Under the pieces are notes generated by a model, which made no database searches, had not been told where the DNA came from, and saw only the letters and a program-made list of their open reading frames with translations. The position numbers were made by a program, and so were the translations under genes. A DNA stretch of 64,000 bases from Candidatus Zixiibacteriota bacterium (GTDB taxonomy: Bacteria; Zixibacteria; MSB-5A5; GN15; FEB-12), in NCBI GenBank assembly GCA_022571845.1, contig JACZXB010000001.1, positions 459,037-523,036 on the forward strand, read 5' to 3'. Positions 2,220 through 56,354 of the stretch are shown here, piece by piece (position 1 is the stretch's first letter; each line of letters opens with the position of its first letter).

Positions 2220-3095
2220 TTAGTGACGTTTCTCCCTCATCTTAAAGAAATTAATAAGTGGAGAAATATATGACTGGTCGGTGCGGATATTGATAAAGTC
2301 CAGGTTGATTGCCCTGAACCCTTTTTTCAGTCCGGCCACATCTTCTGCGGACTGAGCAGCAAACTCTTTTCGAAATTCTTTCGAACCGGTATCTATTATC
2401 AGCACTTCACCGGTCTCGGCATCTTCCAGTTCGATAAGTCCGACATTCTCAAAAGTTATCTCACGCGGGTCAGAAACTTTTATGGCTATGATATCATGTT
2501 TGTTGTTTGCTATCTGAAGCGGCTTGGTAAAGCCTTCAGACAGAAAATCCGAAACAAGAAAAACTACCGACTTGCGCCGGATTACTTTGTTAAAGTATTC
2601 CAGGGCAGCTGCGATGTTTGTGCCTTTCCCTTGTGGCTTGAAATAAAGAATCTCCCGTATTATGCGCAGCACGTGTGCCCGTCCTTTTTTAGGAGGCACA
2701 AATATCTCTATCTGGTCAGTAAAAATAATCAAGCCGACTTTGTCATTATTCTTAATTGCAGAAAAGGCCAGCAACGCTCCCAGCTCCGCGGCAGTTTCGT
2801 TTTTGAATCTATCACGGGTTCCGAATTGTCCCGAAGATGACACATCAATCAGCAAAATAACCGTTAGCTCCCGCTCTTCTCTGAATTTCTTGATATAAGG
2901 TAGTCCCATGCGGGCAGTTACGTTCCAGTCAATCAGGCGGACATCGTCCCCCGGTTCATACTGGCGAACTTCCTCAAACTCCATCCCCTGTCCCTTGAAA
3001 GTTGAATGGTACTCGCCGCTAAAAAGTTCGTTAACTAATTTCTTGGTCCGAATCTCTATCCGGCGGATCTTTTTGATTACTTCTTTGGGGAGCAT
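2220..3095 (-). CDS. DUF58 domain protein (MoxR partner)
   Basis: The hallmark EFEEVRQYEPGDDVRLIDWNVTAR is present, with a VWA-like LIDVSSS. It lies immediately downstream of moxR. Confidence 0.85.
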   Translation of the reverse strand: MLPKEVIKKIRRIEIRTKKLVNELFSGEYHSTFKGQGMEFEEVRQYEPGDDVRLIDWNVTARMGLPYIKKFREERELTVILLIDVSSSGQFGTRDRFKNETAAELGALLAFSAIKNNDKVGLIIFTDQIEIFVPPKKGRAHVLRIIREILYFKPQGKGTNIAAALEYFNKVIRRKSVVFLVSDFLSEGFTKPLQIANNKHDIIAIKVSDPREITFENVGLIELEDAETGEVLIIDTGSKEFRKEFAAQSAEDVAGLKKGFRAINLDFINIRTDQSYISPLINFFKMREKRH

Positions 3096-3104
3096 GGTGG
3101 ATCT

Positions 3105-4094
3105 TTAGGGAACCTCGACTGCGTCAAAAATCTTATTTACGATATCATCACTCTTTATTTCTTCCGCTTCGGCTTCATAAGAAACGATAATCCGGTGTCT
3201 CAATATATCATGCCCGATTGCCTTAATATCTTCCGGTGTTATATAGCCTCGTCCCTTTAAGAAAGCATGAGCTTTGGCTGCAAGATTGAGGAATATAGAG
3301 GCACGTGGCGAGGCACCATAGGCAATGAGATCGGTTAAATCATCGAGTCCGTACTTGGCCGGTTCGCGCGAAGCAAAAACAATGTTTACAATATATTCTT
3401 TAACTTTGTCATCAACATAAATGTCCCGGATTACGTCACGGGCTCTGAGAATATCTTTGGGCTTGATAACTTTCTTGGCCGTTGGAACCTCTTTGACAGT
3501 ATAGCGATCCATAATTTCGCGCTCTTCGGTCGGTGAGGGATAGTCAATCTTGACCATCAGCATAAACCTGTCTATCTGCGCTTCCGGTAGCGGGTAAGTG
3601 CCTTCCTGCTCTATCGGGTTTTGCGTGGCCAGGACTAAGAACGGGTCATCCAGTTTATGAGTTTCGCCGCCTATGGTAACCTGTCTTTCCTGCATAGCTT
3701 CCAGGAGTGCTGACTGAACTTTGGCAGGAGCGCGGTTTATTTCATCGGCCAGAATTATGTTGGCAAAAATAGGTCCCTTTTTGACGGTAAACTGGGAAGT
3801 TTTCGGATTGTAGACCATGGTGCCGATCAGGTCAGCCGGTAAAAGATCAGGCGTGAACTGGATCCGCCGAAATTTTGCGTCTATGGTATCGGACAAAGTC
3901 TGAACAGCCAGAGTCTTGGCCAGCCCCGGCACTCCTTCTATGAGGATGTGGCCGTTGGCCAGAACACCGATTAAGAGTCTTTCAATCAGAATCTTCTGAC
4001 CCACTATTACTTGGCTCATCTGTTCTGTCAGTTGTTTGACAAACACAGATTCCTTCTCAACTTGTTTTTGAATCTGTTCAATATCAGTATGCAT
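3105..4094 (-). CDS. moxR: MoxR-family AAA+ ATPase
   Basis: Walker A is GVPGLAKT. Walker B and sensor read ILADEINRAPAKVQSALLEAMQERQVT. The length of 329 aa is typical. Confidence 0.9.
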   Translation of the reverse strand: MHTDIEQIQKQVEKESVFVKQLTEQMSQVIVGQKILIERLLIGVLANGHILIEGVPGLAKTLAVQTLSDTIDAKFRRIQFTPDLLPADLIGTMVYNPKTSQFTVKKGPIFANIILADEINRAPAKVQSALLEAMQERQVTIGGETHKLDDPFLVLATQNPIEQEGTYPLPEAQIDRFMLMVKIDYPSPTEEREIMDRYTVKEVPTAKKVIKPKDILRARDVIRDIYVDDKVKEYIVNIVFASREPAKYGLDDLTDLIAYGASPRASIFLNLAAKAHAFLKGRGYITPEDIKAIGHDILRHRIIVSYEAEAEEIKSDDIVNKIFDAVEVP

Positions 4095-4126
4095 CAGACC
4101 TCCGGAAGTAGTTTATCAATAAATCC

Positions 4127-5014
4127 CTATATACTCTCTAAAAATTTTCTAATCTCGTTCTCCAGACGAACTGTTTCGCCTACAGAGGCCACAGCAGGTC
4201 TGAATTTATCTTTTTGGGCTCTGACAATCCAGCCCTTAATCTGTCTCTTACGAGTCTCATCAAGATTTGTGTCAGCAAAAGCTGTTTCAATTTCTGCTTC
4301 AGATTTTCCGGCTGTCTCAATCCGGTAGTTTTCTTTTGAAAATTTTGTTAACAGCCTGTAAACACCAGCCTGAAATTTCTTAAAATCTGTCCCGGAATCT
4401 TCTTTGACTTTGGCCAACTCCTGCAAGGCAATTTGTACTGGTGTGAAGACTTCTTCTTCTATTCCGCCACCCTTAATTAAAAAGAAAGCTGCGGCCACAC
4501 CGCCAATCAACAGAAAGCCCCCCATTGCTAAGAACCAGAGCGGGAAACTTTCAGATTCTTCTACAATTATCGGGTCGGCAACATTAATGATAACAGGCTC
4601 GGTCAATAGCTGACCTCGACTTGAGTCCGGCAAGCTTATAAAACTTATTACAATCGGGTCAATTTTGGCTGAGCCGCTTGAGGTAGGTAGCAGAGTATAG
4701 CTGAATTTTTTTATAGTCTTTTCACTGTTTCCGGTCCCGGTCGAATTAATAGATGACGAAAATTGGCGTACTTTTAGTCTGTCGAAGTAAGGATTTAAGG
4801 GGCCTTCGAAGAGATAGGCAAACTGCGATCCTACCCACTCGAGTCTGATTTCAAAAATCAGGCTGTCTTCAAATTTCATCTCCGTCTTGTTTATTGACTG
4901 TGACAAGCCAATAGCCAGAGCGGTTGCATTTGAAAGCAAAAAGATTATTGAAAGCAGGGCTGCAAATATGAACAGAGCCAGGCTGATTTTGAGCGGTTTG
5001 GTTTTAATTCTCAT
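4127..5014 (-). CDS. Membrane protein (exported beta domain + TM + cytoplasmic helical tail), first gene of the MoxR operon
   Basis: It has a signal/TM N-terminus, a central TM (FPLWFLAMGGFLLIGGVAAAFFLI), and the same architecture as ORF 1130..2164. Confidence 0.45.
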   Translation of the reverse strand: MRIKTKPLKISLALFIFAALLSIIFLLSNATALAIGLSQSINKTEMKFEDSLIFEIRLEWVGSQFAYLFEGPLNPYFDRLKVRQFSSSINSTGTGNSEKTIKKFSYTLLPTSSGSAKIDPIVISFISLPDSSRGQLLTEPVIINVADPIIVEESESFPLWFLAMGGFLLIGGVAAAFFLIKGGGIEEEVFTPVQIALQELAKVKEDSGTDFKKFQAGVYRLLTKFSKENYRIETAGKSEAEIETAFADTNLDETRKRQIKGWIVRAQKDKFRPAVASVGETVRLENEIRKFLESI

Positions 5015-5110
5015 TAGCGATTCTGTTTATAACTCAATTTCCTCAATTTGATCACAAATCAGTATTATAAAAGGCTTATACTCGATTGCACGGCATAGGT
5101 TTCACCATTT

Positions 5111-5959
5111 TCAGCGAGCCACTATTAATGCCACAATTCCCAGCAGCATGCCGGCTTTGAGACCTATTGAGCCCATTCTCAGCATTCTGCGGCTGGGATT
5201 ACCCCAGATGGAAATTAAAAGGAGCAATAAAGGCAGGTCAATTATGTAAATAGTCAGTATCTCGTAAGCCTTTCCGAACCAGCCGGCAATGATGGGTATG
5301 AATGTTAAGACAACCATGATGAAAAACAGAATAAGCACCGCCAGCACAGCTCTGGATTCTCCAACTACCTGGGGAAATGTCCTGATTCCCACCCGCCTGT
5401 CACCTTCGATATCCTCAACGTCCTTCAATATTTCTCTGGCCAGATGAAAGAAAAAGGCAAAAAGTGCCGGTATCATTGGTCCGGGCAATGCAAAAGTCAG
5501 CAGCTCATCTACTGCCAGCCCGCCTGTTAGAAAAGTGAGAGCGCCCAGTAGTGCGATTATCAAATTTCCAAATATAGGTATCTTCTTAGCCTTAAAATTG
5601 TAAAGTGCCAGCAAGGCAATTGCCAGAACAACCGCGGTTAACACCTGCCAGTTGATCGCCAGAGCGACGACTAATGCCAGTAGTGTCAAAGCTATGGCCA
5701 GTTTTGTTGCCGCACTTTTTGAAATATCACCAGCGGGCAGAACGCGTTTTGGCTGGTTGATCAGGTCAACGTCAATATCCACAATATCATTTACAACATT
5801 GCCGGCGGCACAAACGAGAAAAGCTGCAACCGCAGACATTACCGGCGCATAATAGACTGTTGACGTCCAGGTGAAATATGCGCCAATTAAGACTGCCGAA
5901 GCTGCAATGATGCAGTTTATAGCGCGAATAAGTTTTAGATAATCCAGGAAAGCCCACAT
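5111..5959 (-). CDS. UbiA-family prenyltransferase (DGGGP-synthase-like size and motifs)
   Basis: The protein is polytopic. The first Asp-rich motif is NDIVDIDVDLINQPKRVLPAG and the second is KDVEDIEGDRRVG. Length is 282 aa. Confidence 0.8.
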   Translation of the reverse strand: MWAFLDYLKLIRAINCIIAASAVLIGAYFTWTSTVYYAPVMSAVAAFLVCAAGNVVNDIVDIDVDLINQPKRVLPAGDISKSAATKLAIALTLLALVVALAINWQVLTAVVLAIALLALYNFKAKKIPIFGNLIIALLGALTFLTGGLAVDELLTFALPGPMIPALFAFFFHLAREILKDVEDIEGDRRVGIRTFPQVVGESRAVLAVLILFFIMVVLTFIPIIAGWFGKAYEILTIYIIDLPLLLLLISIWGNPSRRMLRMGSIGLKAGMLLGIVALIVAR

Positions 5960-5997
5960 CTAAAAAGAATAGAACCGGCAGATGTTACAGTCAACTT

Positions 5998-7638
5998 TCA
6001 AATGTCCGAAGAGAGTTCTATGGAGAGCCGGGGCTGGTCGAATCCGGCCTGCGGTTCCCATCCCAGCGACAACAGCACAGAGCGCAGATTAGTGCCGACA
6101 CCAAGACCAAGTCCGTAGCTCCATTTAAAATCTTCAACAGTTTCAATTTCCCCGCTTTGAACCATCATCCTGTTGTTCAGATAGGCCGCATCGTAAAAAA
6201 GAAAGCCGAATCCTGAGCCAAATCTAAGCCTCGGTTCAATTGTTCCGTAAACAGTCCTGATTGCTGCAAACTGTTCGTTGCGATAACCGCGGAGAGTCCC
6301 AGGTCCGCCTATCAAGATTAACTCTGAGAGGGGGGGTAGATCTTCTTTGGTTTCCAATCCCTGGTATCGAATTTTGCTGTACCAGATAAAATGTCCTGCA
6401 AACTTTCGGAAAATAGAAACCGAGAAATTGTTGCGCGTTTCGTAAAATGACCTCTGCTTGATAAATTCTGGTAGGTTATCAGACACATATTTTCTGAATC
6501 TGAAATCAATCGCCCAGTTAACAGCTAAACCGTCTACGGGATTAAAAGAAGCCGGCTTGGTTCGCTTTGAAAGCGCCAGCTGTCCGCTGACGGCTCTGTA
6601 ATTCAGATTCCCAGTTTCGGGAATAACAGATTTCCAGCCCAATTTAATGCCGGTAGTGAAACTGCTGTTTAACCGGGTAGCATAGCCAGCTGCTATATCA
6701 AACTCGTAGAATTCATCCCGGTAGTTTCTTGTCAGGACTTCAAACTTCAGTTCTCCGGTTCCTGCCATAAACGAAGGCTGACTATACTGCACACGAAGCA
6801 GATTCCGCCCGCTCTCTCTTTTTTCAGAAACAATTTCCACTCTCTTACCTGAACCGAACAAATTATTTATGGCCAGATCAATAGACCAGACAGCATTGTT
6901 TTCTTCTCCTGAAATTCCGGCGGCGCCTTTGAAACTGACAGGAGTTTGCTCCAGAAAGTTAAAGACAATATCCGATACGGTATAACCCGGCCGTGGAGCC
7001 AGCTTTAGAGGCGGCTTGAAAGTCAAAAAAGGCACATTTCCTGCTGCTGTTTCGGCTTGCTTGATGAGTGCCGGCGTGACGTTTTTGCCGGCCAAATTGG
7101 GAACATATTTTGAGATTATGTCGGGGTCGGTTCTCGTAAGTCCGGCGTAGATTTGTTGGCCGATTTCAACCAGCGGCCCCATATTTATATTCAGCTCAAG
7201 CGACACCAGGCTGTCTTGAATTGATATATCTTTTGTTTCGGCTGAAACATAAAGATAGCCCTGGTCTCTAAATTTCTGTAGTTGATGATTGATTGCAAGG
7301 CTGACACTGGCGCTGTCAAAAGGAATATGTATGTCGTCTGTCTGCTGATTCGAGTCGGCTATTAAGATAATCTTTGAGACAAAATATTTGCTGCCTGCCC
7401 GAATAATTAAGTTGCCGCTTTTTATTTCGATGGCAGCATCTATATAGCCGCGACCGACCAGGTCAGTTACTATCGAATCCAGCAGCGCAAACGAAGGGTC
7501 AGGCGAACTCTCAACTGCCTTTTTTATTTCTCCGCTGTTCTCTGGTACTCTGCCCTCGAAAAGCAGTTCAACCGACTGCGCAGATTCAACAATAAGCGCA
7601 GTCAGAACATACACTATGAAAAATAGTCGTACAAACAT
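5998..7638 (-). CDS. Omp85/BamA-TamA family outer-membrane protein
   Basis: It has a signal peptide and a C-terminal barrel with GGPGTLRGYRNEQF, FLFYDAAYL and SYGLGLGV. It overlaps the upstream barrel gene by 1 nt. Confidence 0.65.
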   Translation of the reverse strand: MFVRLFFIVYVLTALIVESAQSVELLFEGRVPENSGEIKKAVESSPDPSFALLDSIVTDLVGRGYIDAAIEIKSGNLIIRAGSKYFVSKIILIADSNQQTDDIHIPFDSASVSLAINHQLQKFRDQGYLYVSAETKDISIQDSLVSLELNINMGPLVEIGQQIYAGLTRTDPDIISKYVPNLAGKNVTPALIKQAETAAGNVPFLTFKPPLKLAPRPGYTVSDIVFNFLEQTPVSFKGAAGISGEENNAVWSIDLAINNLFGSGKRVEIVSEKRESGRNLLRVQYSQPSFMAGTGELKFEVLTRNYRDEFYEFDIAAGYATRLNSSFTTGIKLGWKSVIPETGNLNYRAVSGQLALSKRTKPASFNPVDGLAVNWAIDFRFRKYVSDNLPEFIKQRSFYETRNNFSVSIFRKFAGHFIWYSKIRYQGLETKEDLPPLSELILIGGPGTLRGYRNEQFAAIRTVYGTIEPRLRFGSGFGFLFYDAAYLNNRMMVQSGEIETVEDFKWSYGLGLGVGTNLRSVLLSLGWEPQAGFDQPRLSIELSSDI

Positions 7639-40787: not shown

Positions 40788-41987
40788 TTATTTAATTCCA
40801 AACAATTTCTTAAATATGCTGCGCTTCTTCTGCTCTCGTCGTTTAAGCGAAGGCGCCATCTTGGGAGCGTGTGTACCATAATCTTCCATAGCGGCCGAAT
40901 CGCCTGAGGCTGAATCACTACTTGTGATATTTTTTTCACTTTGATTCATGCCGGGATACGGTCTATCATCCATTTCAGAATTTTCCTCTCCTGAAGGGTC
41001 CGCCTGTTTTGCGCCCGGATAAGGACGATACGCAGGAATTCTGTCGTCAGTCGCCGATGTCGCCGGCGTATCGGCTGTAGCCACTTCGGCTGATGGTTGG
41101 CCCTGAACCTGAGGAGTAGCAGTCGGCGCTGCATAGGGATCGTTACCTAAGGGTTGAACCGAAGGATCGGCCAGCGGCCCATCTGGGTCTGGCTGACCGG
41201 CTGGCGGGGCTACAACTTGAGCAGAAGGCTCTGCTACAGCCGGCTGTGATACCGCAGGTGCCTGAGGCGCCGCAGGCACCTGAGGTGCCGCAGGTGCCTG
41301 AGGTGCCGCAGGTGCCTGAGGTGCCGCAGGTGCCTGAGGTGCCGCAGGTGCCTGAGGTGCCGCAGGTGCTTCGACAGCTGTTTTCGAAGTATTGCTTGAT
41401 ACCTGAGAATTTTTAGCTTTTTCCAGGACAAGTTTGATAATCAGTTTGAGCGTATCAAAAACTCCAGTTCCCACAGTAGCTGAAGCCTCAAAAGTAGGGA
41501 AATTATAAGTATTAAGCTTTTGATCCATCTCTTCCGTTGTCATTATATTGGGAAGGTCTCGTTTGTTATATTGAATGACCAGTGGCAGCTGACTAATATC
41601 GTAACCATATTCTTTGAGGTTATCTATCAGGTTCGCCAAAGCTTCAATATTTTCGTCCATTTTGTCAGGCTGACTGTCAGCAACAAATACAACGCCGTCT
41701 ACACCCCGCAAAACTAATTTACGAGTAGCATTGTAGTAGACCTGGCCGGGCACAGTATAGAGCTGAAACTTGGCCTGAAATCCATTGATTGTACCAATAT
41801 TAATTGGTAGGAAATCAAAATAGAGAGTCCGGTCTGCTTCAGTCGCCAGAGATATAAGATCTCCACGTGTTGTGCTGGGCACTTTGGTGTGGACATATTG
41901 CAAGTTGGTAGTCTTGCCCGATAAGCCCGGACCATAATAGACAATTTTGCAGCAGACCTCTCGCGCCGAGTAGTTTATTGATACCAT
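40788..41987 (-). CDS. mglA: MglA-family Ras-like GTPase with a roughly 200-aa proline-rich C-terminal extension
   Basis: Residues 1-195 are near-colinear with M. xanthus MglA ([68 protein letters not shown]). An (APAAPQ)n low-complexity tail follows. Confidence 0.9.
41252..41368 (-). repeat. 18-bp in-frame tandem repeat, about 6.5 copies, encoding (APAAPQ)n
   Basis: The plus-strand unit CCGCAGGTGCCTGAGGTG is repeated head to tail. Four central copies are identical, and the first two carry 1-2 substitutions. Confidence 0.95.
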
Positions 41988-44326: not shown

Positions 44327-44698
44327 TCAGCTTAACGTATTTCTGGCGCTAAAAACCCCAAATGCAAAAAGTCCCGACATCAGAAGCAGCATTAATGGAG
44401 CAAATAGCTCCGGCAGTGTAAAAAACTCCATCGCCGAAGCGATACTTGCCAGCTGGCTTATAGCCAGAAGCACGAAACCAAGGAAAAACATCTGCCAGCT
44501 CCTGCTCAGATAACCACCTTTTACCTGTCCCAGTACCTGGAAAGAACCAAACAAACAGGCTCCGGCAACTATCAATACGAACAGGCTGAACATCGTCGGC
44601 GGACTGGCTATAACTGCCAGGTTGGCGGCCTGGACATCACTGCCCAACCCTGCACTAATTAAAATTCCAATAAATAAACACTTTTTCATCTTAATCAC
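44327..44698 (-). CDS. Small membrane protein (signal peptide + 3 TM)
   Basis: The signal ends DVQAA and three hydrophobic helices follow. It overlaps the DUF4388 gene by 8 nt. Confidence 0.55.
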   Translation of the reverse strand: MIKMKKCLFIGILISAGLGSDVQAANLAVIASPPTMFSLFVLIVAGACLFGSFQVLGQVKGGYLSRSWQMFFLGFVLLAISQLASIASAMEFFTLPELFAPLMLLLMSGLFAFGVFSARNTLS

Positions 44699-45896
44699 CT
44701 CGTACCATATGAACTACTTTTTCTGCCCTTTTTAAGGATCTATAGTAATCGTTTTCTATTCCATATTTCTTGACTAAATCTCGCTTCTTTGCCAGCGGCT
44801 CGGATATTTCTCTTTTTACTCCGTTAAGCGTGCGCCGGAATGGACCTTCGCCCAAAATCATGAATACATATTCCAGTTGTTCGGTGAGCATGCCGGTTAA
44901 ACCGCTAAGCAATACATGCACCCGGATATGAGTAGGAATTGATCTGACTGCGCTAAGGAATTTTTCCTGTGAGGGCATCAATTCTGAGCCCGGATCTACC
45001 CCCGGAAAATAACTCAAAATTCCTGAGCGATACTGAGAAGCAAAATTTGAAAACCTGGTGTTGTTCTCTCCCAGTAAATCCTCTACCGTAGTACGAATCC
45101 TGTAAAAGGCGTTGCTGAACAGATAAAAGATTAGAGACAGAACCGCTTCTTCTTCATCCTCTTTTTCTTCAGAACTTTCTTCCCGTTCGCCAGTTACTTC
45201 TATCAAATTTCCTAATATCAACTTGTAAACTGCACGACAAGTGACGAACTCTCCAAAAGGCGAAGCTTGTATCATTTCCGGCAAAGTTCTTTCGCCATTT
45301 ATCATAGACAGTACCCGAAATTCTTCCATAGTCAGTCTGACTTCATCACTGTTTGTCTTGGGTGAAGCGACTACAGACAACATCATTTCATCTGGCGGCA
45401 GCACCTTTTGAATTTCCAGCCATTCATCAATACGGCGGGTACCTTCCATGACGATACTCATGGTGGTGAGCTCTACTAAAAAAGGTGCGTTTTTGGGACT
45501 GGTGCCTTCGTGGAAAACGAAGTTTCCTTCCTGCCAAGAAAACAAATTATAGACTATTTCTTCAATTTGGAATTTCAGACACTCTGCGATTTCATCTTTT
45601 TCAAAAAGATTCATATCCACCAGTGTGGTACCCAGCTGTCTGCCGGTCTGCTTGTGCAGAGTTATGGCACGCTCTAACTGGTCCTTGGAAAGTTTTCCCT
45701 TACGCAGCAGCATATTCCCCAGCAAATCTTCGCTAGTATTTAATGACGAAGCGTAAATGATGTTGCCGTTTTTAAACGCTACTTCCTTTTGCCTGGCACT
45801 GGTGTTTACTTCCAGAACTCCTGTCTTCTTGCCAGTTGACAATAACTGCAGGATATCCGAGAATGAGACTGTTTTTAAATTCCCTGACAAACTCAT
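44691..45896 (-). CDS. DUF4388 (PATAN-like) domain protein
   Basis: The N-terminal hallmark is GNLKTVSFSDILQLLSTGKKTGVLEV....VAFKNGNIIYASS. It is the first gene of the MglA block. Confidence 0.7.
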   Translation of the reverse strand: MSLSGNLKTVSFSDILQLLSTGKKTGVLEVNTSARQKEVAFKNGNIIYASSLNTSEDLLGNMLLRKGKLSKDQLERAITLHKQTGRQLGTTLVDMNLFEKDEIAECLKFQIEEIVYNLFSWQEGNFVFHEGTSPKNAPFLVELTTMSIVMEGTRRIDEWLEIQKVLPPDEMMLSVVASPKTNSDEVRLTMEEFRVLSMINGERTLPEMIQASPFGEFVTCRAVYKLILGNLIEVTGEREESSEEKEDEEEAVLSLIFYLFSNAFYRIRTTVEDLLGENNTRFSNFASQYRSGILSYFPGVDPGSELMPSQEKFLSAVRSIPTHIRVHVLLSGLTGMLTEQLEYVFMILGEGPFRRTLNGVKREISEPLAKKRDLVKKYGIENDYYRSLKRAEKVVHMVRGD

Positions 45897-46000
45897 TTTT
45901 TATTCCCTCTGACAGACCCGATATTATTGAATATTCCCTCATTCGGGCTCAATTCCCTTTATTTATCGGGTATTTCAGGGGATAACTTAAGGTAGAATCG

Positions 46001-46669
46001 TCAAAACTGAGAGACTTGGAAACTACTGTCAGTTCGGTTCTTAAGCTTGATCCGACAGCCTCCGGTTTGCCCAATATCCGTAACTATTTTCTGGTATTTT
46101 TCAGCAGGCAAAAAACCAGCGTCTTTCTGTTCAATTCTTGAACAGACCAGCTGCTCTAAGTTGCTTTGACTTTCGATAATTTTTTCAATTTCCGAGCGGG
46201 CGATCTTACTTCTTCCGCAATAAATAACCAGTGACTGCTTTGCTAAGGAAACTTTATTATCCCCGGACAGAATATTCTCATTTGCTATCAATATCGATGA
46301 ATTATCCAATTCAAGCTCTATTAGATTTTTCGAGGGATAATAGCCCGGCAATAATTTATTAGAATTCTCTGCCGAAAATGACTCAATCGTGATTGTGCCG
46401 TAATTTGCAAAAAGTGTCCGGCTGATGTCCGAAAAGCTCTTTTCTATCCTGGCGTCTACTATGACAGATTTGGCCTGATAGCTAAGGCAGAGTCTGTAAA
46501 TGTCATCGATAGCTCCATACTCCGATGACATCACAAAAACCTGGCCGAGCCCCTCCACACCTAATTCATCAAAGGCCGAGCTGAAAATTCGTTCATCTAT
46601 TGGGTACGGTTTCCGAGTCAAGCCGCTGATTATCAAGTCTGGCACCTGGCTTTGATTCTGATAAATCAA
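46001..46669 (-). CDS. Hypothetical protein, possibly a degenerate C-terminal (MBL-like) remnant of ComEC/Rec2
   Basis: Only a TTG start is available. The frame stays open upstream to the stop at 46736 and there reads IDIFNIPGGTAILIY..LIISG, which resembles the DVGQGDAxLI..LIDxG entry of the ComEC lactamase domain. The C-terminus TDIGQTGGCRIKL resembles TDxxGAI. The metal ligands are not conserved. Confidence 0.4.
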   Translation of the reverse strand: MIYQNQSQVPDLIISGLTRKPYPIDERIFSSAFDELGVEGLGQVFVMSSEYGAIDDIYRLCLSYQAKSVIVDARIEKSFSDISRTLFANYGTITIESFSAENSNKLLPGYYPSKNLIELELDNSSILIANENILSGDNKVSLAKQSLVIYCGRSKIARSEIEKIIESQSNLEQLVCSRIEQKDAGFLPAEKYQKIVTDIGQTGGCRIKLKNRTDSSFQVSQF

Positions 46670-46762
46670 AATTGCAGTGCCACCGGGAATGTTAAAAATA
46701 TCGATTGTGCAAAAGTCATTAGAGCGGGAGCGTAGCTACCCCCGCTCAGATTCAATTATTAG

Positions 46763-46791
46763 TTGACATTTGGTGGTGCTCTGATTATATA
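46763..46791 (+). promoter_or_regulatory. Sigma70-type promoter (TTGACA-N17-TATATA)
   Basis: There is a perfect -35 at 46763-46768, a 17-nt spacer, and a -10 TATATA at 46786-46791. Confidence 0.55.
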
Positions 46792-46797
46792 CCAAAT

Positions 46798-46888
46798 GTA
46801 AGGGTCATAGAACCTTTGCATTGGAAACTCCTTTCTTTTCGCTTGAGTGTTTCCAAATTTGGCCGGTAGCTCAAACTACCGGCTTTTT
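46798..46888 (+). ncRNA. Candidate small RNA of about 90 nt, bounded by a promoter and a terminator
   Basis: It starts about 7 nt after the -10 and has no ORF (ATG-TAA only). Internal hairpins are CCAAATG..CATTGG and GGAAACTC..GAGTgTTTCC. It ends in the terminator at 46861-46888. Confidence 0.35.
46861..46888 (+). terminator. Intrinsic terminator
   Basis: The sequence is gGCCGGTAGctcaaaCTACCGGC followed by TTTTT. Confidence 0.65.
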
Positions 46889-47034
46889 ATAATATCTGTA
46901 CACCCCAAATTTAAGTCAAGTACTTTTTAAATTAAGTTACAATTTATATTCCCCACAAGTCGGGCATATTAACTGATTTGGCGGTAGCTGTAAGGGCTTC
47001 AACTAAAAGCAGTTACGTGCCCAACAGATTTTAC

Positions 47035-47062
47035 TTGACAAAGCCCGATAAATATGTAGCTT
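47035..47062 (+). promoter_or_regulatory. Possible sigma70-type promoter for the HTH-like gene
   Basis: It reads TTGACA-N16-TAGCTT, where the -10 keeps only T1, A2 and T6. It lies about 40 nt upstream of the GGAGG-ATG. Confidence 0.35.
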
Positions 47063-47102
47063 TGCGTTGTCATTACTTAAGCGAAAAACAGGAGGACTTA
47101 CA

Positions 47103-47669
47103 ATGGTAAAAGGTATCGGAAATGACCCTATGGTAAAAGCTCTGACTAAAGAGCTTGAAGAAATACTTCGTAGGGCGGCAGAGATTAAAAAATTCATCAA
47201 TGACACTTACGTTTATCGGGGAGCTTCTCCACTCTATACAGATGTTGATTATGTCCCCGCTGGCGGTACACTAAACCTTGCTCACGATCAATATTTTGGT
47301 AAAGGGCTGGCTACTGCTGGAAAAGAATTTCTTCAAGCTAAGGGACGGGCTGCCCCCTCTGACGAAATTTTTGAAGCTTTCAATAAAGGAGGCTTCGAGT
47401 GGCCTACAAACTGGAAAGAACGAGACAGATTAAAGAATCTTGCAATATCACTAAGCAAGAATCGCTATGATTTTGTTATTGTTCGAACAAGCAAAGGCCA
47501 AGCGTATGGATTGTATGAATTCTATCCTGAAAAAATGAAAGAAAGGGAACGGAAAAAACAGGGGAAATCTAATGAAACTGAGTCTGCCAATAATGGCTCC
47601 CCCGCAACAATTGAAAAGGTTGAATCAACAGAAACTAAGATTGAAGAGAGTAAAAATGAGGGGAATTAA
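47103..47669 (+). CDS. Hypothetical DNA-binding protein with a HARE-HTH-like winged-helix core and a Lys/Glu-rich tail
   Basis: The ATG at 47103 lies 7 nt after GGAGG. The track ORF starts at an upstream TTG. The segment AGKEFLQAKGRAAPSDEIFEAF...YDFVIVRTSKGQAYGLYEFYPE follows the HARE-HTH pattern (compare RpoE ..WGLRSWYP). This assignment rests on pattern recall only. Confidence 0.55.
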   Translation: MVKGIGNDPMVKALTKELEEILRRAAEIKKFINDTYVYRGASPLYTDVDYVPAGGTLNLAHDQYFGKGLATAGKEFLQAKGRAAPSDEIFEAFNKGGFEWPTNWKERDRLKNLAISLSKNRYDFVIVRTSKGQAYGLYEFYPEKMKERERKKQGKSNETESANNGSPATIEKVESTETKIEESKNEGN

Positions 47670-47699
47670 TTTGACTTTAAAGGCTGTATAGTCTACTTA

Positions 47700-47960
47700 G
47701 TGAACGGGCGGGTAATGCCCTGCCTCCCAAAATTATGTTGTCCGTCACACAACGGAGAATAGGGCGGCTCCAGTTGTGACGGAGCCCAAGTAAGCAGTGA
47801 AGCTTACCTGTACAACATAATGGAGGTGCTAATGCAAAGTACCCCAAAGGACAATCTTGCCAAGATTGTCTTGGGCTCAATCACTCGGATAGTGATAGAG
47901 CTTATTCGGAAACTGTTTTAGTAGAAAGAGGCAGGGTAACCCCGCCTATAATTTTGGGAA
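47700..47960 (+). ncRNA. Candidate structured RNA (multi-helix, family not recognised)
   Basis: Nested perfect helices are 47707-47726/47928-47946, 47732-47741/47812-47821, and hairpins at 47741-47783, 47790-47807, 47843-47875 and 47880-47896. An alternative 11-bp pairing joins 47726-47736 and 47948-47958. I chose the plus strand because a hairpin with a T7 run follows at 47996-48020. Confidence 0.45.
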
Positions 47961-47995
47961 ATTCGCTCCTTTCAGTATCTTACAATACCAATTTC

Positions 47996-48020
47996 ACTTG
48001 ACTCATTCAAGTCTTTTTTT
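47996..48020 (+). terminator. Weak intrinsic terminator
   Basis: The sequence is ACTTGActcatTCAAGT, then c, then TTTTTTT. The stem is 6 bp and AT-rich. Confidence 0.4.
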
Positions 48021-48128
48021 GCTAAAAGTCAAACTATTTTTTGCTCCTACCAAAAAATATGTCGGCCAAATTCCCTTAACTCTTAGCAATCCCCATACCT
48101 ATTGTACACTTTTTGCCCCAAAAATAGA

Positions 48129-48156
48129 TTGACAGAGATGGGATAGCCAGTATTCT
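48129..48156 (+). promoter_or_regulatory. Possible sigma70-type promoter (TTGACA-N16-TATTCT)
   Basis: The -35 is perfect. The -10 ends 7 nt before the ATG at 48164, which implies a leaderless mRNA. Confidence 0.4.
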
Positions 48157-48163
48157 TGAGATT

Positions 48164-48424
48164 ATGCAGGTAGTGCTCAATAAAGCTCAGAAAGTGATTC
48201 TTATAATCAGCTTAGCTCTGATAGCTTTCTCTTTTCTATTCCCAACGTGGGAATTTCGCCGAACGGAAATCACCAGAGTCTTAAAGAGGGTTGATTATCA
48301 ATTTATTCTTGCTCCCCCCAAATATAAGACACATCCGATGCAAATAGACTATGGCCGTATGCTGATCCAGATAGTGGTTATCGTAATTGTCGGGGGTGGA
48401 TTGATTCTTGTTAAGAAGTCTTAG
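48164..48424 (+). CDS. Small two-TM membrane protein, unknown function
   Basis: The 86-aa product has TM1 VILIISLALIAFSFLF and TM2 LIQIVVIVIVGGGLILV. There is no Shine-Dalgarno sequence. Confidence 0.5.
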   Translation: MQVVLNKAQKVILIISLALIAFSFLFPTWEFRRTEITRVLKRVDYQFILAPPKYKTHPMQIDYGRMLIQIVVIVIVGGGLILVKKS

Positions 48425-48439
48425 CAATTCTCAAAAATC

Positions 48440-48775
48440 TCAAAATAGCCCACTACCAAATATTTGATAGGTTTGCTTCTCCGAAATAAATCGGGCAACA
48501 TGATTTGAACCAAAATTATAGGTTTTGAGACCGTAATGAAAACCGCTGAAAAAAAAGAGACAAAGAGCAAATAAGATAATCGAAAACCGGGCTGACTCTT
48601 TTTTAAACAGAACCAGTCCGCCAATAAACGAAATCAGACAGAGCAGCAGGAAGAGCCAGCCTGGCGGGCGGACAAAATCTGTGAACAGAATTCCGGCCAC
48701 TACCGGAATCAGAAAAAAAAGACCAGGATATTTTTTTAGCACAACTACATACGGAAAATAATTTTCAGGATCCAC
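48440..48775 (-). CDS. Truncated ComEC/Rec2 N-terminal (DUF4131-like) fragment
   Basis: LKKYPGLFFLIPVVAGILF plus two more TM helices and ..HVARFISEKQTYQIFG resemble the start of ComEC. The ORF stops after 111 aa. The GTG start overlaps the murJ end, and an alternative GTG lies at 48742. Confidence 0.45.
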   Translation of the reverse strand: MDPENYFPYVVVLKKYPGLFFLIPVVAGILFTDFVRPPGWLFLLLCLISFIGGLVLFKKESARFSIILFALCLFFFSGFHYGLKTYNFGSNHVARFISEKQTYQIFGSGLF

Positions 48776-50319
48776 TTGCCGATTTTAACGGCTTCTGAGA
48801 CCCCAAAGATAAGGCAGAAAATAAAATATGCAACGCCCCCGATGCAAAGAATTGAAGTTAGCTCGGCGGCTCTGTTTAAGACCTCGAATTCAATTGAGAA
48901 ACTCAAGTGTGTAATTTTGGCCAGATAAAAGGCCAATGATGCCGCTAAGGCCACTCTGAAAAGATTCAGTAGAATTCTTCCCCAGTTAATTTCAATCGGC
49001 TTGGTTGATAAAAAAACGAGTAACAAAGTTGCGTTTAACAGCCCGGCCAACGATGTAGCCGCCGCCAGACCAGCGAAATCCAGCACCTGAATCAAGGGAT
49101 AATACAAAAGCAAGTTGACTACGACTGTCACCAGAGAAACTCGCATGGGCAGGCGGGAATCACCAAAAGCGTAATAGAAGGGAGCTACAACTCTTACAAC
49201 TGCGAAACCTATCAAACCGTAGGAATAGTGCAATAAAGCCAGCGATACTTTAGAAGTATCTAACTCGTTAAACGCTCCCCACTGATAAATCAATTTGATT
49301 ATCATCGGCGCAATCAAGGCCAGCACTACCGCCGATGGTATCACGATAAAAAAGTTCAGTCCGATTGCCTGCTGAAATGTTTTGCTTAGGTTATCGAAAT
49401 CTTTTTTGGCGACCAGTTCAGATACCTTTGGAAGGGCAACTGTTCCCAGGGCAACGGCAAAGACACCCAGCGGGAAATGCATTAATCGAAAAGAGTAATT
49501 CAAATAAGACAATGACCCCTCAGCCAGAAACGATGCCAGAATAGTACTGACCAATATATTGACTCTACCGGCCGATAGCCCCACGACCATAGGCACAAAG
49601 AGCTTGGTTATTCTTTTCATGCCTTCGTCCAAAAAGTTAAGGCTGGGATAAAAGCGGTATCCGGTCTTAAAAAGTGCCGGAAGTTGTATAGCCAGCTGCG
49701 CCACACCTCCGATAACGACACCTATAGCAAGAGCATATATAGGCTGCTCAAAAAACCGGTGAAATACCAGAACAGTCAGGACTGTACCAAGATTGAAAAG
49801 TGCCGGAGAAATGGCCGGAATGGCAAACTTGCCGTAGGAGTTCAACATCCCCATTACCAGCGAAGACAAAGAGACGAGTAGCAGATAAACCATCATTATT
49901 CTGGTCAGGTTGACAGTAAGATCATATTTTAAGGGATCTGACGTAAATCCGTTGGCTGAGATATAGACTATCACCGGAGCCGCTACTATCCCCAATAGCA
50001 CAATTAGCCCTACAAAAAGCAGTATCGAAGTCGCCACAATATTCGCCAGGCTTCTGGCTTCAGATTCCGACTCATTCACTAATTTTTGCTTGAAAACAGG
50101 CACAAAAGCCGAAGATAAGGCCCCCTCGGCAAACATATCCCTGAGCAGGTTGGGAATTCTGAAAGCAACTACAAAAGCGTCAGTGGCAATTCCCGCCCCG
50201 AAATAGAAAGCCATTACCTGTTCCCTGACAAGCCCCAGTACCCTGGATATAGCTGTTGCGCCCGATACGGAACCGGCTGATTGGGCCAGAGAGCTCTCTT
50301 TCTTATTAACTGTTGACAA
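48745..50319 (-). CDS. murJ: Lipid II flippase MurJ (MviN)
   Basis: The N-terminus reads SRVLGLVREQVMAFYFGAGIATDAFVVAFRIPNLLRDMFAEGALSSAFVPVF. It has about 14 TM helices. Confidence 0.9.
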   Translation of the reverse strand: MSTVNKKESSLAQSAGSVSGATAISRVLGLVREQVMAFYFGAGIATDAFVVAFRIPNLLRDMFAEGALSSAFVPVFKQKLVNESESEARSLANIVATSILLFVGLIVLLGIVAAPVIVYISANGFTSDPLKYDLTVNLTRIMMVYLLLVSLSSLVMGMLNSYGKFAIPAISPALFNLGTVLTVLVFHRFFEQPIYALAIGVVIGGVAQLAIQLPALFKTGYRFYPSLNFLDEGMKRITKLFVPMVVGLSAGRVNILVSTILASFLAEGSLSYLNYSFRLMHFPLGVFAVALGTVALPKVSELVAKKDFDNLSKTFQQAIGLNFFIVIPSAVVLALIAPMIIKLIYQWGAFNELDTSKVSLALLHYSYGLIGFAVVRVVAPFYYAFGDSRLPMRVSLVTVVVNLLLYYPLIQVLDFAGLAAATSLAGLLNATLLLVFLSTKPIEINWGRILLNLFRVALAASLAFYLAKITHLSFSIEFEVLNRAAELTSILCIGGVAYFIFCLIFGVSEAVKIGKWILKIIFRM

Positions 50320-50383: not shown

Positions 50384-50638
50384 GTGCCACTTCATAAATC
50401 TTGTGTCAAGCGGGTGAAAACTTCCGCCAAAGCGCGCGAGCGCAACCGGGGCAAACGAAGCCGACTCCGGGCAGCTATTAAAGAGCTGCGCCTGGCGACC
50501 AGCAAAGACGAAGCTCTGAAGCTTTATAAGCAGGTAACTCGCCTTCTGGACCGGGCGGCATCTGACGGCCTTATTCATAAGAAGAATGCCGATAGAAACA
50601 AGTCCAGGTTTGCAGCAGTTGTCAGCCGTATCAGTTAG
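50384..50638 (+). CDS. rpsT: 30S ribosomal protein S20
   Basis: The product is an 84-aa basic helical protein with KSCVKRVKTSAKARERN and HKKNADRNKSR. The start is GTG. Confidence 0.9.
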   Translation: MPLHKSCVKRVKTSAKARERNRGKRSRLRAAIKELRLATSKDEALKLYKQVTRLLDRAASDGLIHKKNADRNKSRFAAVVSRIS

Positions 50639-53189: not shown

Positions 53190-53936
53190 ATGAATAAATC
53201 TACATTTGTCATAGGCGGACTTCTGATTTTTTTTGGGCTGTTTTTCTTGATGGAGTCTATTGGACTTTTCTGGTTTGACTTTGGCGAATTTATCTCGTTT
53301 ATGATTCCGTTTGGTTTGATAGCCTTCGGGGTCTGGTTAATCGTTCGCAAAAAGGACAAAGAGAGTAAAGCGATTACGGTTACAATTCATGAAGACATCA
53401 AAAGCTATGATTCTTCTGCGCCCAAGCCACCAAAAACCGAATACACTTCAGATTCAGTTGCCACTCCTGCCCAGCCTGCAAGTCCAACCCCCCCGGAAAG
53501 CCCGAAGAAACCTGCCGAATTTTTCGGCGCTGAATCCAGCGACAATGCTCAGTCCGAAACTTACGGCAGACTCCGCTATAGTAAGATGTTTGGGGATATG
53601 TATATTGATTGCAAAGGGAAAAAACTTAGTAACATAGAAATATCTACTGGTGTTGGAGATCTGGAACTGAATCTAATTGAAGGGATTTTATCTAAAGGTC
53701 TTAACCGCGTCATCATTTCTGGTTTTATTGGTGATATCCGAATCTTTGTCTCTAAGGAAATGTCGTTTTTTTCTCATTGCTCGAATTTTATAGGAGATAT
53801 CGATTTGAGCGGACAAAGAACCTCCGGATTTGGCAATACTCTGGAGCATGATGATCCCGGCTACGATCAGGCAGAATCAAAACTCTATGTTGCCGCCAAT
53901 AGTTTTATAGGTAATATTAAAGTTTACCGAATTTAG
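53190..53936 (+). CDS. LiaF-like membrane protein (DUF5668-type TM N-terminus + toast-rack-like C-domain)
   Basis: The N-terminal TM pair is GGLLIFFGLFFL and FGLIAFGVWLIVRKK. A Pro-rich linker follows. The C-terminus has repeated GD(I/L)xL/F strands (VGDLELNL, IGDIRIFV, IGDIDL, IGNIKVY). Confidence 0.6.
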   Translation: MNKSTFVIGGLLIFFGLFFLMESIGLFWFDFGEFISFMIPFGLIAFGVWLIVRKKDKESKAITVTIHEDIKSYDSSAPKPPKTEYTSDSVATPAQPASPTPPESPKKPAEFFGAESSDNAQSETYGRLRYSKMFGDMYIDCKGKKLSNIEISTGVGDLELNLIEGILSKGLNRVIISGFIGDIRIFVSKEMSFFSHCSNFIGDIDLSGQRTSGFGNTLEHDDPGYDQAESKLYVAANSFIGNIKVYRI

Positions 53937-54131
53937 AAAACCAGACTGAATCCGACTAATTCTTCTTAGAGCCGCATACTTCAGAAACAAAACCAGCGGA
54001 TGGATCACCCTCCACTGTAGAAAATTCCCGGAGCAATTGTGACAAAGTTGCGAACGGCACTTTTGAGGAGATTCTTTGGATTGATCTAGATTGAAGTCGG
54101 AGTCGGCTGAGCCGGTTGACCTTGCTCAGCG

Positions 54132-54416
54132 TCACATCCAAATTCTTTTTTCCCGTATCACGAGCCACCAACGTAATGTGAGACCCAAATAGGCCAGCCC
54201 AACAAGCACGAAGAATATCTCAGAAAATGAAAAGAGCCCCGATGCGCCGAGAATGGTCATCAACGGGAGTGGCCACTCGCGCCAAAGGATTAGCGACAAG
54301 GCGGCGCCGACAAGCGCTACCGGTATTCCGACGATAGAAAGCGGCAAGAGAACGAGCATGCCCAGTGCTTGGCTGTAGTCGAAGAACATAATCCCTATCA
54401 GCGACCCCAGAACCAT
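54132..54416 (-). CDS. Small three-TM membrane protein, unknown function
   Basis: The 94-aa hydrophobic product lies in a G+C-rich patch. It starts 2 nt after the upstream stop. Confidence 0.5.
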   Translation of the reverse strand: MVLGSLIGIMFFDYSQALGMLVLLPLSIVGIPVALVGAALSLILWREWPLPLMTILGASGLFSFSEIFFVLVGLAYLGLTLRWWLVIREKRIWM

Positions 54417-54418
54417 CG

Positions 54419-54958
54419 TTACCCCGACCCAGCTGAAGCAGGCGTAGGAAACATCACCTTACGGGAGGTTTTCACGGGTGGCTGGTGCAGTAAATCAGGC
54501 GGTCTACCTTGGTCGTCCGGCAGATCGCCTAGCTGCAATTCGTCGTTTCTTGACTTCGCATGCTGGGGCATCTCCAACTTCCAAGCGAAATAAAACAGGG
54601 CGACGTCAAGGAGACCACTGAAAAAAAGGAATCCGCCTATTGATTCGGCCAGATACTCACTTGGTAACAGAATAAGTCCGACAACCACTGTGAAAAACGA
54701 GACAACGGCACCAGCCATAACCAAAAATCGTCCCCTTGAATATCCATAGATCAATCCCAGGCCGCCGCTTAGGAATAGTGCCCAAATTACGGCTTCAGGT
54801 GCGCTCTGCCAAGCCGCGAGAAATTTGCTATCGGTGAACATACTCCCGATTAAACCGAGAGCAACTATGACGAGTCCAACCGTGGTCCAGGCAGCAAAAA
54901 TCAGCGATATGATTCCGACTGTCCGTGGGCTAAGTCTATACTTGTCTTTCATCGCCAT
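54419..54958 (-). CDS. Membrane protein (about 5 TM) with a charged C-tail, unknown function
   Basis: The 179-aa product has hydrophobic helices and lies in a G+C-rich patch. Confidence 0.55.
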   Translation of the reverse strand: MAMKDKYRLSPRTVGIISLIFAAWTTVGLVIVALGLIGSMFTDSKFLAAWQSAPEAVIWALFLSGGLGLIYGYSRGRFLVMAGAVVSFFTVVVGLILLPSEYLAESIGGFLFFSGLLDVALFYFAWKLEMPQHAKSRNDELQLGDLPDDQGRPPDLLHQPPVKTSRKVMFPTPASAGSG

Positions 54959-55001
54959 TCAAATTATTCAATAGTGATTCATTATGAAGGGGGAATCCCG
55001 G

Positions 55002-56354
55002 TTAAAGAATATATTTACTCAAATCTTCACTCTCCACTATTTCGGAGAGTCTTTCTTCTACCATCTTAGCAGAAATGGTCACTTTCTTTTTGGATATCGG
55101 AGGATCAAACAGAATATCCTCCAATAGTGTTGTCAGTACAGTATGGAGTCTTCTAGCGCCGATATTTTCAGACGCGGAATTTACCCGCTCAGCATACTCG
55201 GCAATTTTCTTGATAGCAGCGTCAGAGAAAACCAGTTCAACTTCTTCTGACTTTAGCAAAGCGCGGTACTGTTTAACCAGCGATGCTTTTGGCTCGGTCA
55301 GAATGCGTTCAAAATCCTTGGCGGTCAAAGAATCAAGTTCGACCCTGATTGGGAATCGCCCCTGAAGTTCCGGAATCAAATCCGACGGGCTGGTCGAGCT
55401 GAAAGCGCCGGCGGCAATAAATAAAATATGGTCGGTCTGAACCAGGCCGTATTTGGTATTAACACTGCTACCCTCAACAATCGGCAGAATATCTCTCTGG
55501 ACTCCTTCGCGGCTGACATCGGGACCGGATTTTCCTTCGCTGCCTACTATTTTGTCTATCTCGTCGATAAAAATTATGCCTGATTCCTGAACCCGATTCA
55601 GCGCGTCGGGAATGACTTCATCCATATTGACCAGCTTGTTCAGTTCTTCGTTGGCTAAGAATTTTTTAGCCTGATCAACCGGCATTTTGCGTCTTTTTGA
55701 CTTGCGTGGCATCATCCCCGAAAACATCTCCTGAAAATTAACACCCAGCTCTTCCATGCCCATCGGAGAAAAAATTTCAATTACCGGAAACTGGTTTTGC
55801 GGCGCATCGACTTCTATCTCCCGCTTATCGAGTTTGCCTTCAATCAGGCGGCTTTTGAGTTTTTCTCTGGTTCTATCGAAAGTATCTGACTTTTCAGGGT
55901 CAGGCAATTTGGCGTCGATTGCGCTTCTTTTCGGCGGCGGCAGCATTATATCCAGAATCCGTTCTAACGCAATTTCTTGTGCTTTTACTTTTAAATCTTT
56001 TGATTTTTCCTGTTTGACCATGTTGACCGAAATATCCACCAGGTCGCGCACCATTGATTCCACATCGCGTCCGACATAACCGACTTCGGTAAATTTTGAA
56101 GCTTCTACTTTCATAAAAGGGGCATGGGCCAAATCTGCCAGCCGGCGGGCAATTTCTGTCTTACCGACTCCGGTCGGACCCATCATTATAATATTGTTAG
56201 GCATCATCTCCTGCCGAATATCTTCGTCGGCATTCTGTCTGCGCCAGCGGTTCCTGAGAGCTATTGCTACAGATTTTTTGGCGTTGTCCTGGCCGACAAC
56301 ATATTTATCAAGATGGGAGACAATTTCTTTGGGAGTCAGATAACTGTTATTCAT
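55002..56354 (-). CDS. hslU: ATP-dependent protease ATPase subunit HslU
   Basis: Motifs are [59 protein letters not shown] and FIAAGAF. Confidence 0.95.

Follow-up and report, generated by a model that had tools for sequence, protein, structure and literature searches.

A 1.7-kb insert with a transposon-like end replaces the core of comEC in an uncultured Zixibacteria genome

The comEC locus

We analyzed a 64,000-nucleotide stretch of the genome of a Candidatus Zixiibacteriota bacterium (assembly GCA_022571845.1, contig JACZXB010000001.1, positions 459,037 to 523,036), referred to here as the window, with its first letter as position 1. The locus of interest lies between murJ and a gene for a DUF4388 protein, and holds two remnants of a gene for the DNA-uptake channel ComEC that are separated by foreign DNA. 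An earlier reading of this stretch, made from the sequence alone, had proposed that two minus-strand open reading frames (ORFs) are the ends of one comEC gene, that the central competence channel domain is missing and that an insertion plus a deletion produced this arrangement. All three proposals are borne out by comparison with related genomes. The features of the locus are as follows.

44691..45896, DUF4388 gene, flanking the comEC remnants
46001..46727, minus strand, comEC 3' fragment, codons 526-766, 90% identical to the ComEC of relative L005 (tblastn)
46722..46747, 7-bp hairpin GAGCGGG/CCCGCTC across the left junction, with its left arm in comEC and its right arm in the insert
46728..48457, plus strand, foreign insert of about 1.73 kb replacing 1287 bp of comEC (blastn against L003-L005, junction alignments, contig L026)
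48440..48742, minus strand, comEC 5' fragment, GTG start at 48742, homologous codons 1-97 down to about 48452-48458
48745..50319, murJ, flanking the comEC remnants, Pfam E=5e-120

The close relatives used for comparison are three Zixibacteria sequences (L003, L004 and L005), recovered by a scan with MurJ, which is 93-95% identical to that of the window. Each of them has a single, uninterrupted comEC gene of 766 codons between murJ and the DUF4388 gene, and comEC directly follows murJ in all ten Zixibacteria relatives, comprising these three and seven more distant ones. Both the gene order murJ-comEC-DUF4388 and the sequences show that the two fragments in the window are orthologous to one comEC. 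With ComEC of L005 as tblastn query, residues 1-97 match the window at 48742..48452 and residues 526-766 match at 46726..46004; residues 98-525 have no counterpart anywhere in the 64 kb. At the DNA level, the collinearity with L003, L004 and L005 ends at 48456-48465 and restarts at 46721-46730 (blastn). The position of the left junction has an uncertainty of about 4 nt, and that of the right junction one of 2-5 nt. A segment of 1287 bp in L004 (11865..13151) occupies the position of 1728 unrelated bases in the window (46728..48455). Because foreign DNA occupies the place of the lost domains, we conclude that an insertion plus deletion replaced the core of comEC. All of the relatives recovered have an intact comEC at the site; none of them carries two small ORFs there, and the inserted cassette is not syntenic at this position.

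The intact orthologues match the Pfam models DUF4131 (E=2e-25, 90 bits) and Competence (PF03772; E of 1e-58 to 2e-58, residues 229-495), and the ComEC proteins of the relatives align to solved ComEC structures (30bt, 9vc6) over residues 32-490 (E=8e-31). The lost 1287 bp encoded most of DUF4131 and the entire Competence channel domain. Of the profile searches that the earlier reading had suggested for the two fragments, the one with the 5' fragment gives a sub-threshold match to DUF4131 (23.7 bits with a cut-off of 31.6, E=4e-5, profile positions 4-63 only), and the one with the 3' fragment has no Pfam match at all. The Competence domain was not detected in the window, either with Pfam or with tblastn. 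Since this domain is absent from the window yet present in the orthologues, we consider the comEC of the window a pseudogene.

The reading frame of the 5' fragment enters the insert beyond the region of homology and terminates at 48440, and P0002/L002 extend beyond this stop codon. The sequence-only reading had correctly recognized this ORF as a ComEC N-terminus, and had placed it at 48440..48775; the true start is the GTG codon at 48742. Its statement that the neighbouring genes are without exception encoded on the minus strand does not hold. Nearly all long ORFs between 29.5 and 64 kb are on that strand, and the exceptions are rpsT (50384..50638), an ORF at 53190..53936 and the insert's own gene.

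Assembly and age of the disruption

A further metagenome contig (L026, ENA ERZ27267505, 2181 bp) corresponds to window positions 46420-48600 with one mismatch (99.95% identity), and crosses both junctions. This contig (MEGAHIT k141) stops 143 nt past the right junction, near the k-mer length, which would be compatible with a branch of the assembly graph due to a co-occurring intact allele. We also considered a short ENA scaffold (L001, 678 bp) as a second rearrangement of comEC and rejected it as a probable inverted assembly chimera: bases 361-503 match the 3' part of comEC, whereas bases 502-678 contain upstream comEC sequence in reverse complement.

The two comEC fragments contain neither stop codons nor frameshifts, and their substitution pattern is like that of murJ and of the DUF4388 gene. 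With L004 or L003 as outgroup, 11-14 synonymous versus 4-5 non-synonymous changes are assigned to the window lineage in both fragments together. The lack of lesions and the predominance of synonymous changes argue that comEC died recently.

Contents of the insert

The insert has no match in the remainder of the window, and searches of phage and plasmid collections at the DNA and protein levels gave no matches. It contains the following features.

46792..46890, plus strand, candidate small RNA with two hairpins and an intrinsic terminator (46861-46884 with a T run behind it), minimum free energy -35.3, z-score -5.4
47035..47102, plus strand, promoter-like TTGACA and 5' untranslated region, with AGGAGG at 47090-47095
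47103..47669, plus strand, ORF188, encoding a 188-residue protein with a predicted long N-terminal helix and winged-helix domain
47704..47958, strand not assignable, nested and mostly perfect inverted-repeat block of 255 nt, closed by 47706-47726 and 47927-47947
48129..48156, plus strand, promoter-like TTGACA-16-TATTCT
48164..48424, plus strand, ORF86, doubtful gene for an 86-residue product with two hydrophobic segments, codon score 0.114 (borderline)

The sole related sequence is a Logan contig of 987 bp (L020), which is 89.5% identical and has a different left flank. It is a related copy of the cassette, and there is no other copy within the window.

The earlier reading described the insert as a self-contained module of RNA and protein genes, which is borne out only in part. 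ORF188 is a real gene, presumably for a DNA-binding protein. It has an AGGAGG ribosome-binding site and host-like codon usage, and its mismatches to L020 are distributed over the three codon positions as 12/10/37. The stretch immediately in front of it (47035-47102) is 93% conserved in L020, compared with 69% in the 45 bp just upstream. Neither ORF188 nor ORF86 belongs to a family in Pfam, NCBIfam, PHROGs or PADLOC. The structural model of ORF188 has a predicted local distance difference test score (pLDDT) of 75, with weak structural matches to forkhead, PadR, MarR and Fur proteins (E around 0.01). ORF86, which might encode a small protein of the membrane, is doubtful as a gene: there is no recorded called gene with exactly its product.

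A small RNA of about 100 nt is plausible. A TTGACA-N17/18-TATATA sequence lies directly upstream, and L020 is 94% identical over the RNA, with differences located in loops or changing U-A to U-G. The similarity to L020 ends exactly at 46792, so the promoter of the small RNA is not common to the two copies. When 39 loci were searched with a covariance model of the small RNA, no further copy turned up, and the RNA was not found in other loci of the ORF188 family. In Rfam 15, neither 46792-46890 nor 47704-47958 was matched (E<=1 in 45000-50000, and gathering score over the whole window), and scans of IMG/VR with exact patterns of the palindromic block and of the small RNA gave no matches.

The palindromic block folds much better than shuffled sequences on both strands (z-scores of -6.4 for the plus and -7.2 for the minus strand). 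From the sequence it cannot be told which strand is relevant, or whether the block acts as RNA or as DNA. No homologue of it was found in the rest of the window, in Rfam, in phage and plasmid collections or in the IMG/VR pattern scan. A perfect inverted repeat of 13 nt, CCTATAATTTTGG (47945-47957) and CCAAAATTATAGG (48510-48522), connects the right edge of the block with conserved comEC coding sequence over a distance of 552 nt, and may be due to chance.

The three TTGACA hexamers that the earlier reading had noted on the plus strand (46763, 47035 and 48129) are all present, in only mild excess (three in 1.73 kb versus about 0.8 expected from the rate over the whole window); a generic promoter scan finds seven sites versus 7.0 in shuffled sequences. 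The sequence CCCAAAWWTW, a motif that was selected after inspection of the data, occurs five times in the insert (46904, 47726, 47949 on the minus strand, 48117 and 48317) and twice in the other 62 kb, and could be a protein-binding motif. No tRNA or tmRNA genes were found in the window.

The ORF188 family and its transposons

A word-indexed search retrieved 10 homologues of ORF188, and a full profile search 1109 cluster representatives, nearly all of which are 160-210 residues long. The gene keeps company with mobile elements. Homologues adjoin tyrosine integrases, Prim-Pol, type III restriction-modification genes and SocA (L021, L022, L027-L032), as well as IS1595 transposases and tRNA genes (L033, L044, L046), and one is encoded by a phage contig that carries genes for portal and capsid proteins (L047). 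Repeatedly, they are oriented divergently from a pair of genes for HTH_3 and Peptidase_M78 (ImmA/IrrE-type) proteins.

In one locus (L040, Ga0209212_1005129) the homologue lies within an element of 3.7 kb (2892-6594), and the same element is present in L041. Inverted repeats of 19 nt (GGTAGTGGTACATTTTGGA, 18 of 19 positions matching) are located 3.7 kb apart at its termini, and are flanked by an 8-bp direct repeat, AAACATCA, which we interpret as the target duplication. Peptidase_M78, HTH_3 and the ORF188 homologue are carried as cargo ahead of an insertion sequence (IS) 1-type transposase, which is read in two frames, with a frameshift, and partially matches the Pfam model DDE_Tnp_IS1 (E=1e-6). 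The element has housekeeping genes on both sides, its site being flanked by genes for a peptidase and a tRNA synthetase. Because terminal repeats and a direct repeat enclose these genes, including the transposase gene, we regard the element as a complete transposon with cargo. A repressor/antirepressor switch within an IS1-type element seems unusual.

Several loci of the family have a conserved stretch of about 170 nt that follows the winged-helix gene and lies before that of the transposase (L021 3786-4060, L036 1472-1745, L037 822-1170, L038 1105-1368, L039 6508-6775, L040 4756-4985; also L041). It contains a hairpin (CCGCCCG..CGGGC), CTAACA and TAACTCATTGCAGGC; in front of it lies what may be a tiny ORF (MSKVLKL). 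We considered it as a relative of the palindromic block and rejected this, as the two are unrelated and the stretch is not present in the window.

The ends of the insert

The two ends of the insert are annotated as follows.

46729..46791, plus strand, left terminal 63 bp, without similarity to L020, containing TTGACA (46763)-N17/18-TATATA and the inverted repeat ACATTTGG/CCAAATGT
48439..48457, minus strand, putative IS1-type terminal repeat GGTAGTGGGCTATTTTGAG, the right tip of the element at the comEC junction

An end motif, GGTAGTG followed after 2-4 nt by CTAWTTTGA, is found 3' of the ORF188 homologues in L022, L039 and L040, in the same position and orientation as in the window. A loose version of this pattern has no further matches in 237 kb (family loci and window together); about 0.3 matches would be expected by chance in 474 kb of sequence. 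Because the end motif recurs after these homologues, we take the right junction to be a genuine transposon tip, and the right end of the insert to be of the transposon type.

The left end is less clear, and the left 63 bp may be a degenerate left end of the element. The 7-bp hairpin that the sequence-only reading had pointed out at the left junction is present and mildly unusual, as a comparable hairpin straddles 1.8% of random window positions. The sequence GTAG-N12-AGATT is present at both ends of the insert, which we judge not significant by itself. An integron cassette was considered and rejected; no attC site or integron integrase was seen, without a formal test for them.

Origin of the insert

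We propose that comEC was destroyed by a transposase-less cargo element of an IS1-like transposon family, with loss of the adjoining 1287 bp, and consider the probability of this reading to be roughly 0.7. A transposase-less derivative of the cargo-transposon family would have inserted into comEC, presumably mobilized in trans by a transposase encoded elsewhere. The adjoining 1287 bp would have been lost in a transposition-linked adjacent deletion, which is a known behaviour of IS1. Alternatively, a later deletion may have removed the 1287 bp and also trimmed the left side of the element; the order of events and the mechanism of the deletion are conjectural in either case. The disruption would abolish DNA import and thereby transformability, unless a second comEC is located outside the 64 kb. 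We considered a reversible disruption of the Listeria comK type, in which excision restores the gene, and rejected it: the core of comEC is missing, so excision cannot restore it.

Several observations weigh against this proposal. The left tip is identical to the right tip at 11 of 22 positions, and no left terminal repeat could be demonstrated. The insert is not flanked by a target-site duplication of 8-9 bp, as would be expected if a deletion removed one flank. Transposase genes are lacking from the insert, the 64-kb window and the loci of the relatives alike. L022 and L039 likewise show the right end only, and left terminal repeats and target duplications were found in neither of them nor in the window; the element may frequently have a single end or be truncated. 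The one close copy of the cassette, in L020, diverges at 46792 and is uninformative on the ends. Finally, the tip is assigned to the IS1 type by the partial Pfam match of the L040 transposase and by IS1 ends, which we take to be GGTRATG.

The least improbable of the alternatives, although unlikely, is that the insert is the remnant of a larger integrase-type island (a prophage, an integrative and conjugative element or an integrative and mobilizable element) that integrated into comEC and later lost its recombinase and most of its length in a deletion, together with 1.3 kb of comEC, the GGTAGTG end being incidental. The company of the homologues would fit such an origin, with tyrosine integrases, Prim-Pol and HTH_17 nearby in L021 and L027-L032, tRNA genes next to them in L033, L044 and L046, and the phage contig L047. 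However, the right boundary of the insert matches to the base the transposon-type repeat of L040, L022 and L039, and neither an integrase fragment nor an att-like repeat was found in the insert. This match to a transposon tip also argues against a one-step illegitimate recombination, for instance of the homology-facilitated kind with imported DNA, in which 1.73 kb of unrelated foreign DNA took the place of 1.29 kb of comEC without transposition, since a random fragment is unlikely to end exactly there. We hold such a swap to be very unlikely, even if the missing target duplication, the lack of a convincing left repeat, a junction microhomology of at most 2-4 nt and the hairpin straddling the left junction would all be in line with it.

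It is highly improbable that the cassette is a selected anti-competence device, in the sense that the element targets comEC and thereby blocks its own cure by transformation, with a contribution from the RNA or protein of the cargo. Mobile elements have been documented to disrupt competence genes, including comEC (PMC12378983, PMC12955456 and PMC4774983), and the event in the window appears to be recent. Yet it is a single case, and homologous elements reside at unrelated targets (between the peptidase and tRNA synthetase genes in L040, and at restriction-modification genes in L022), with flanks that are merely AT-rich. An assembly chimera, in which the insert was mis-joined into comEC, has an almost negligible probability. 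The source is a metagenome-assembled genome, and the short L001 contig from a relative is probably an inverted comEC chimera itself, but the separately assembled L026 spans both junctions with one mismatch and the comEC fragments are in the correct order and orientation.

Returning to the cargo element of an IS1-like family, we speculate that the 1.73-kb unit could be a working, trans-moved member of an undescribed IS1-related family of cargo transposons, with a phage-like XRE/ImmA switch and the winged-helix family as conserved cargo, and with the small RNA and the 255-nt palindromic block as functional parts instead of debris. We regard this extended version as quite unlikely. If it were true, a repressor/antirepressor switch would control transposition, and the small RNA or the palindromic block could act in the control of transposition or of host competence.

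The C-terminal domain of ComEC

The sequence-only reading saw the entry of a metallo-beta-lactamase (MBL) domain in the C-terminal ORF. A weak resemblance to the MBL fold is indeed present; a recognizable Lactamase_B domain is not, as sequence models of that family have no match even in the intact orthologues. The domain does not contain a single histidine, and has no HxHxDH metal site. A profile built from eight Zixibacteria C-terminal domains aligns weakly to the MBL region of the ComEC structure 30bt (E=0.88), pairing SAEYGAIDD with THPDADHIGG. The single-sequence model of the domain is poor (pLDDT 50 overall, and 64-82 in the first 100 residues), and a fold search of the PDB with this model gives top matches that are almost all of the MBL fold (E of 1e-3 to 1e-2). 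With low confidence, we suggest that the C-terminal domain amounts at most to an MBL-like domain that is degenerate and non-catalytic. Almost half of the ComEC proteins are without the characterized C-terminal domain (PMC8579336).

Other features of the window

Besides the insert, the window has another islet that is specific to the strain (53906-55002, about 1.1 kb). It is located between hslU and a gene for a 248-residue protein, where L004 and L005 have about 59 bp. It contains two minus-strand membrane ORFs (54419..54958 and 54132..54416) and has a G+C content above that of its surroundings. On the minus strand at 40788..41987, an MglA-like small GTPase is encoded with a C-terminal (PAAPQA)n repeat tail, which accounts for a spike in G+C content at 41000-41400. 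The alignment to the relatives breaks at 41234-41320, so the number of repeats probably varies.

Comparison with known systems

The locus is a new instance of a documented type of comEC disruption, in a new phylum, by a small cargo element and with an irreversible deletion; competence genes are commonly lost in this manner. The comEC gene of S. pneumoniae is interrupted by a genomic island (PMC12378983), that of Piscirickettsia salmonis by various transposable elements (PMC12955456), and another competence gene, comM of A. baumannii, is inactivated by AbaR islands (PMC12378983, PMC12955456, PMC11441513). As in these cases, a mobile element here interrupts a gene that is essential for DNA uptake, and the disruption is polymorphic within a lineage, the relatives being intact. 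In contrast to them, comEC has lost its core here, the element is a transposase-less fragment of 1.7 kb, and the host is an uncultured member of the Zixibacteria. That strains of an uncultured phylum differ in keeping the DNA-uptake channel fits the conflict between mobile elements and transformation that has been described (PMC4774983, PMC11472951). For annotation, the two small ORFs should be treated as halves of one pseudogene, and the genome should not be scored as comEC-positive.

The ComEC orthologue of the relatives resembles the structurally characterized ComEC/Rec2 proteins (30bt, 9vc6) in having DUF4131 and Competence domains, and differs from them in its C-terminal domain, which lacks the HxHxDH motif and any histidine.

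Mobile insertion cassettes and insertion sequences with cargo, as in the case of MIC231/IS231, consist of passenger genes between IS-type terminal repeats, lack a transposase and are moved in trans. The insert in the window is similar to them in that it has passenger genes, no transposase and an IS-type repeat at its right boundary. Unlike them, it has no demonstrated second repeat or target duplication, and no second copy or autonomous partner was seen. The comparison with the IS1 family gives a similar picture. The tip of the insert is GGTRRTG-like and the deletion begins at the end of the element; the transposon in L040 shares with IS1 the 8-bp target duplication, the transposase read in two frames and the DDE_Tnp_IS1 match. 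It differs from a classic IS1 in carrying an XRE/ImmA-type pair and a winged-helix gene as cargo. This unnamed winged-helix family thus recurs beside XRE/ImmA pairs and recombinases, and the complete transposon in L040 carries the whole module.

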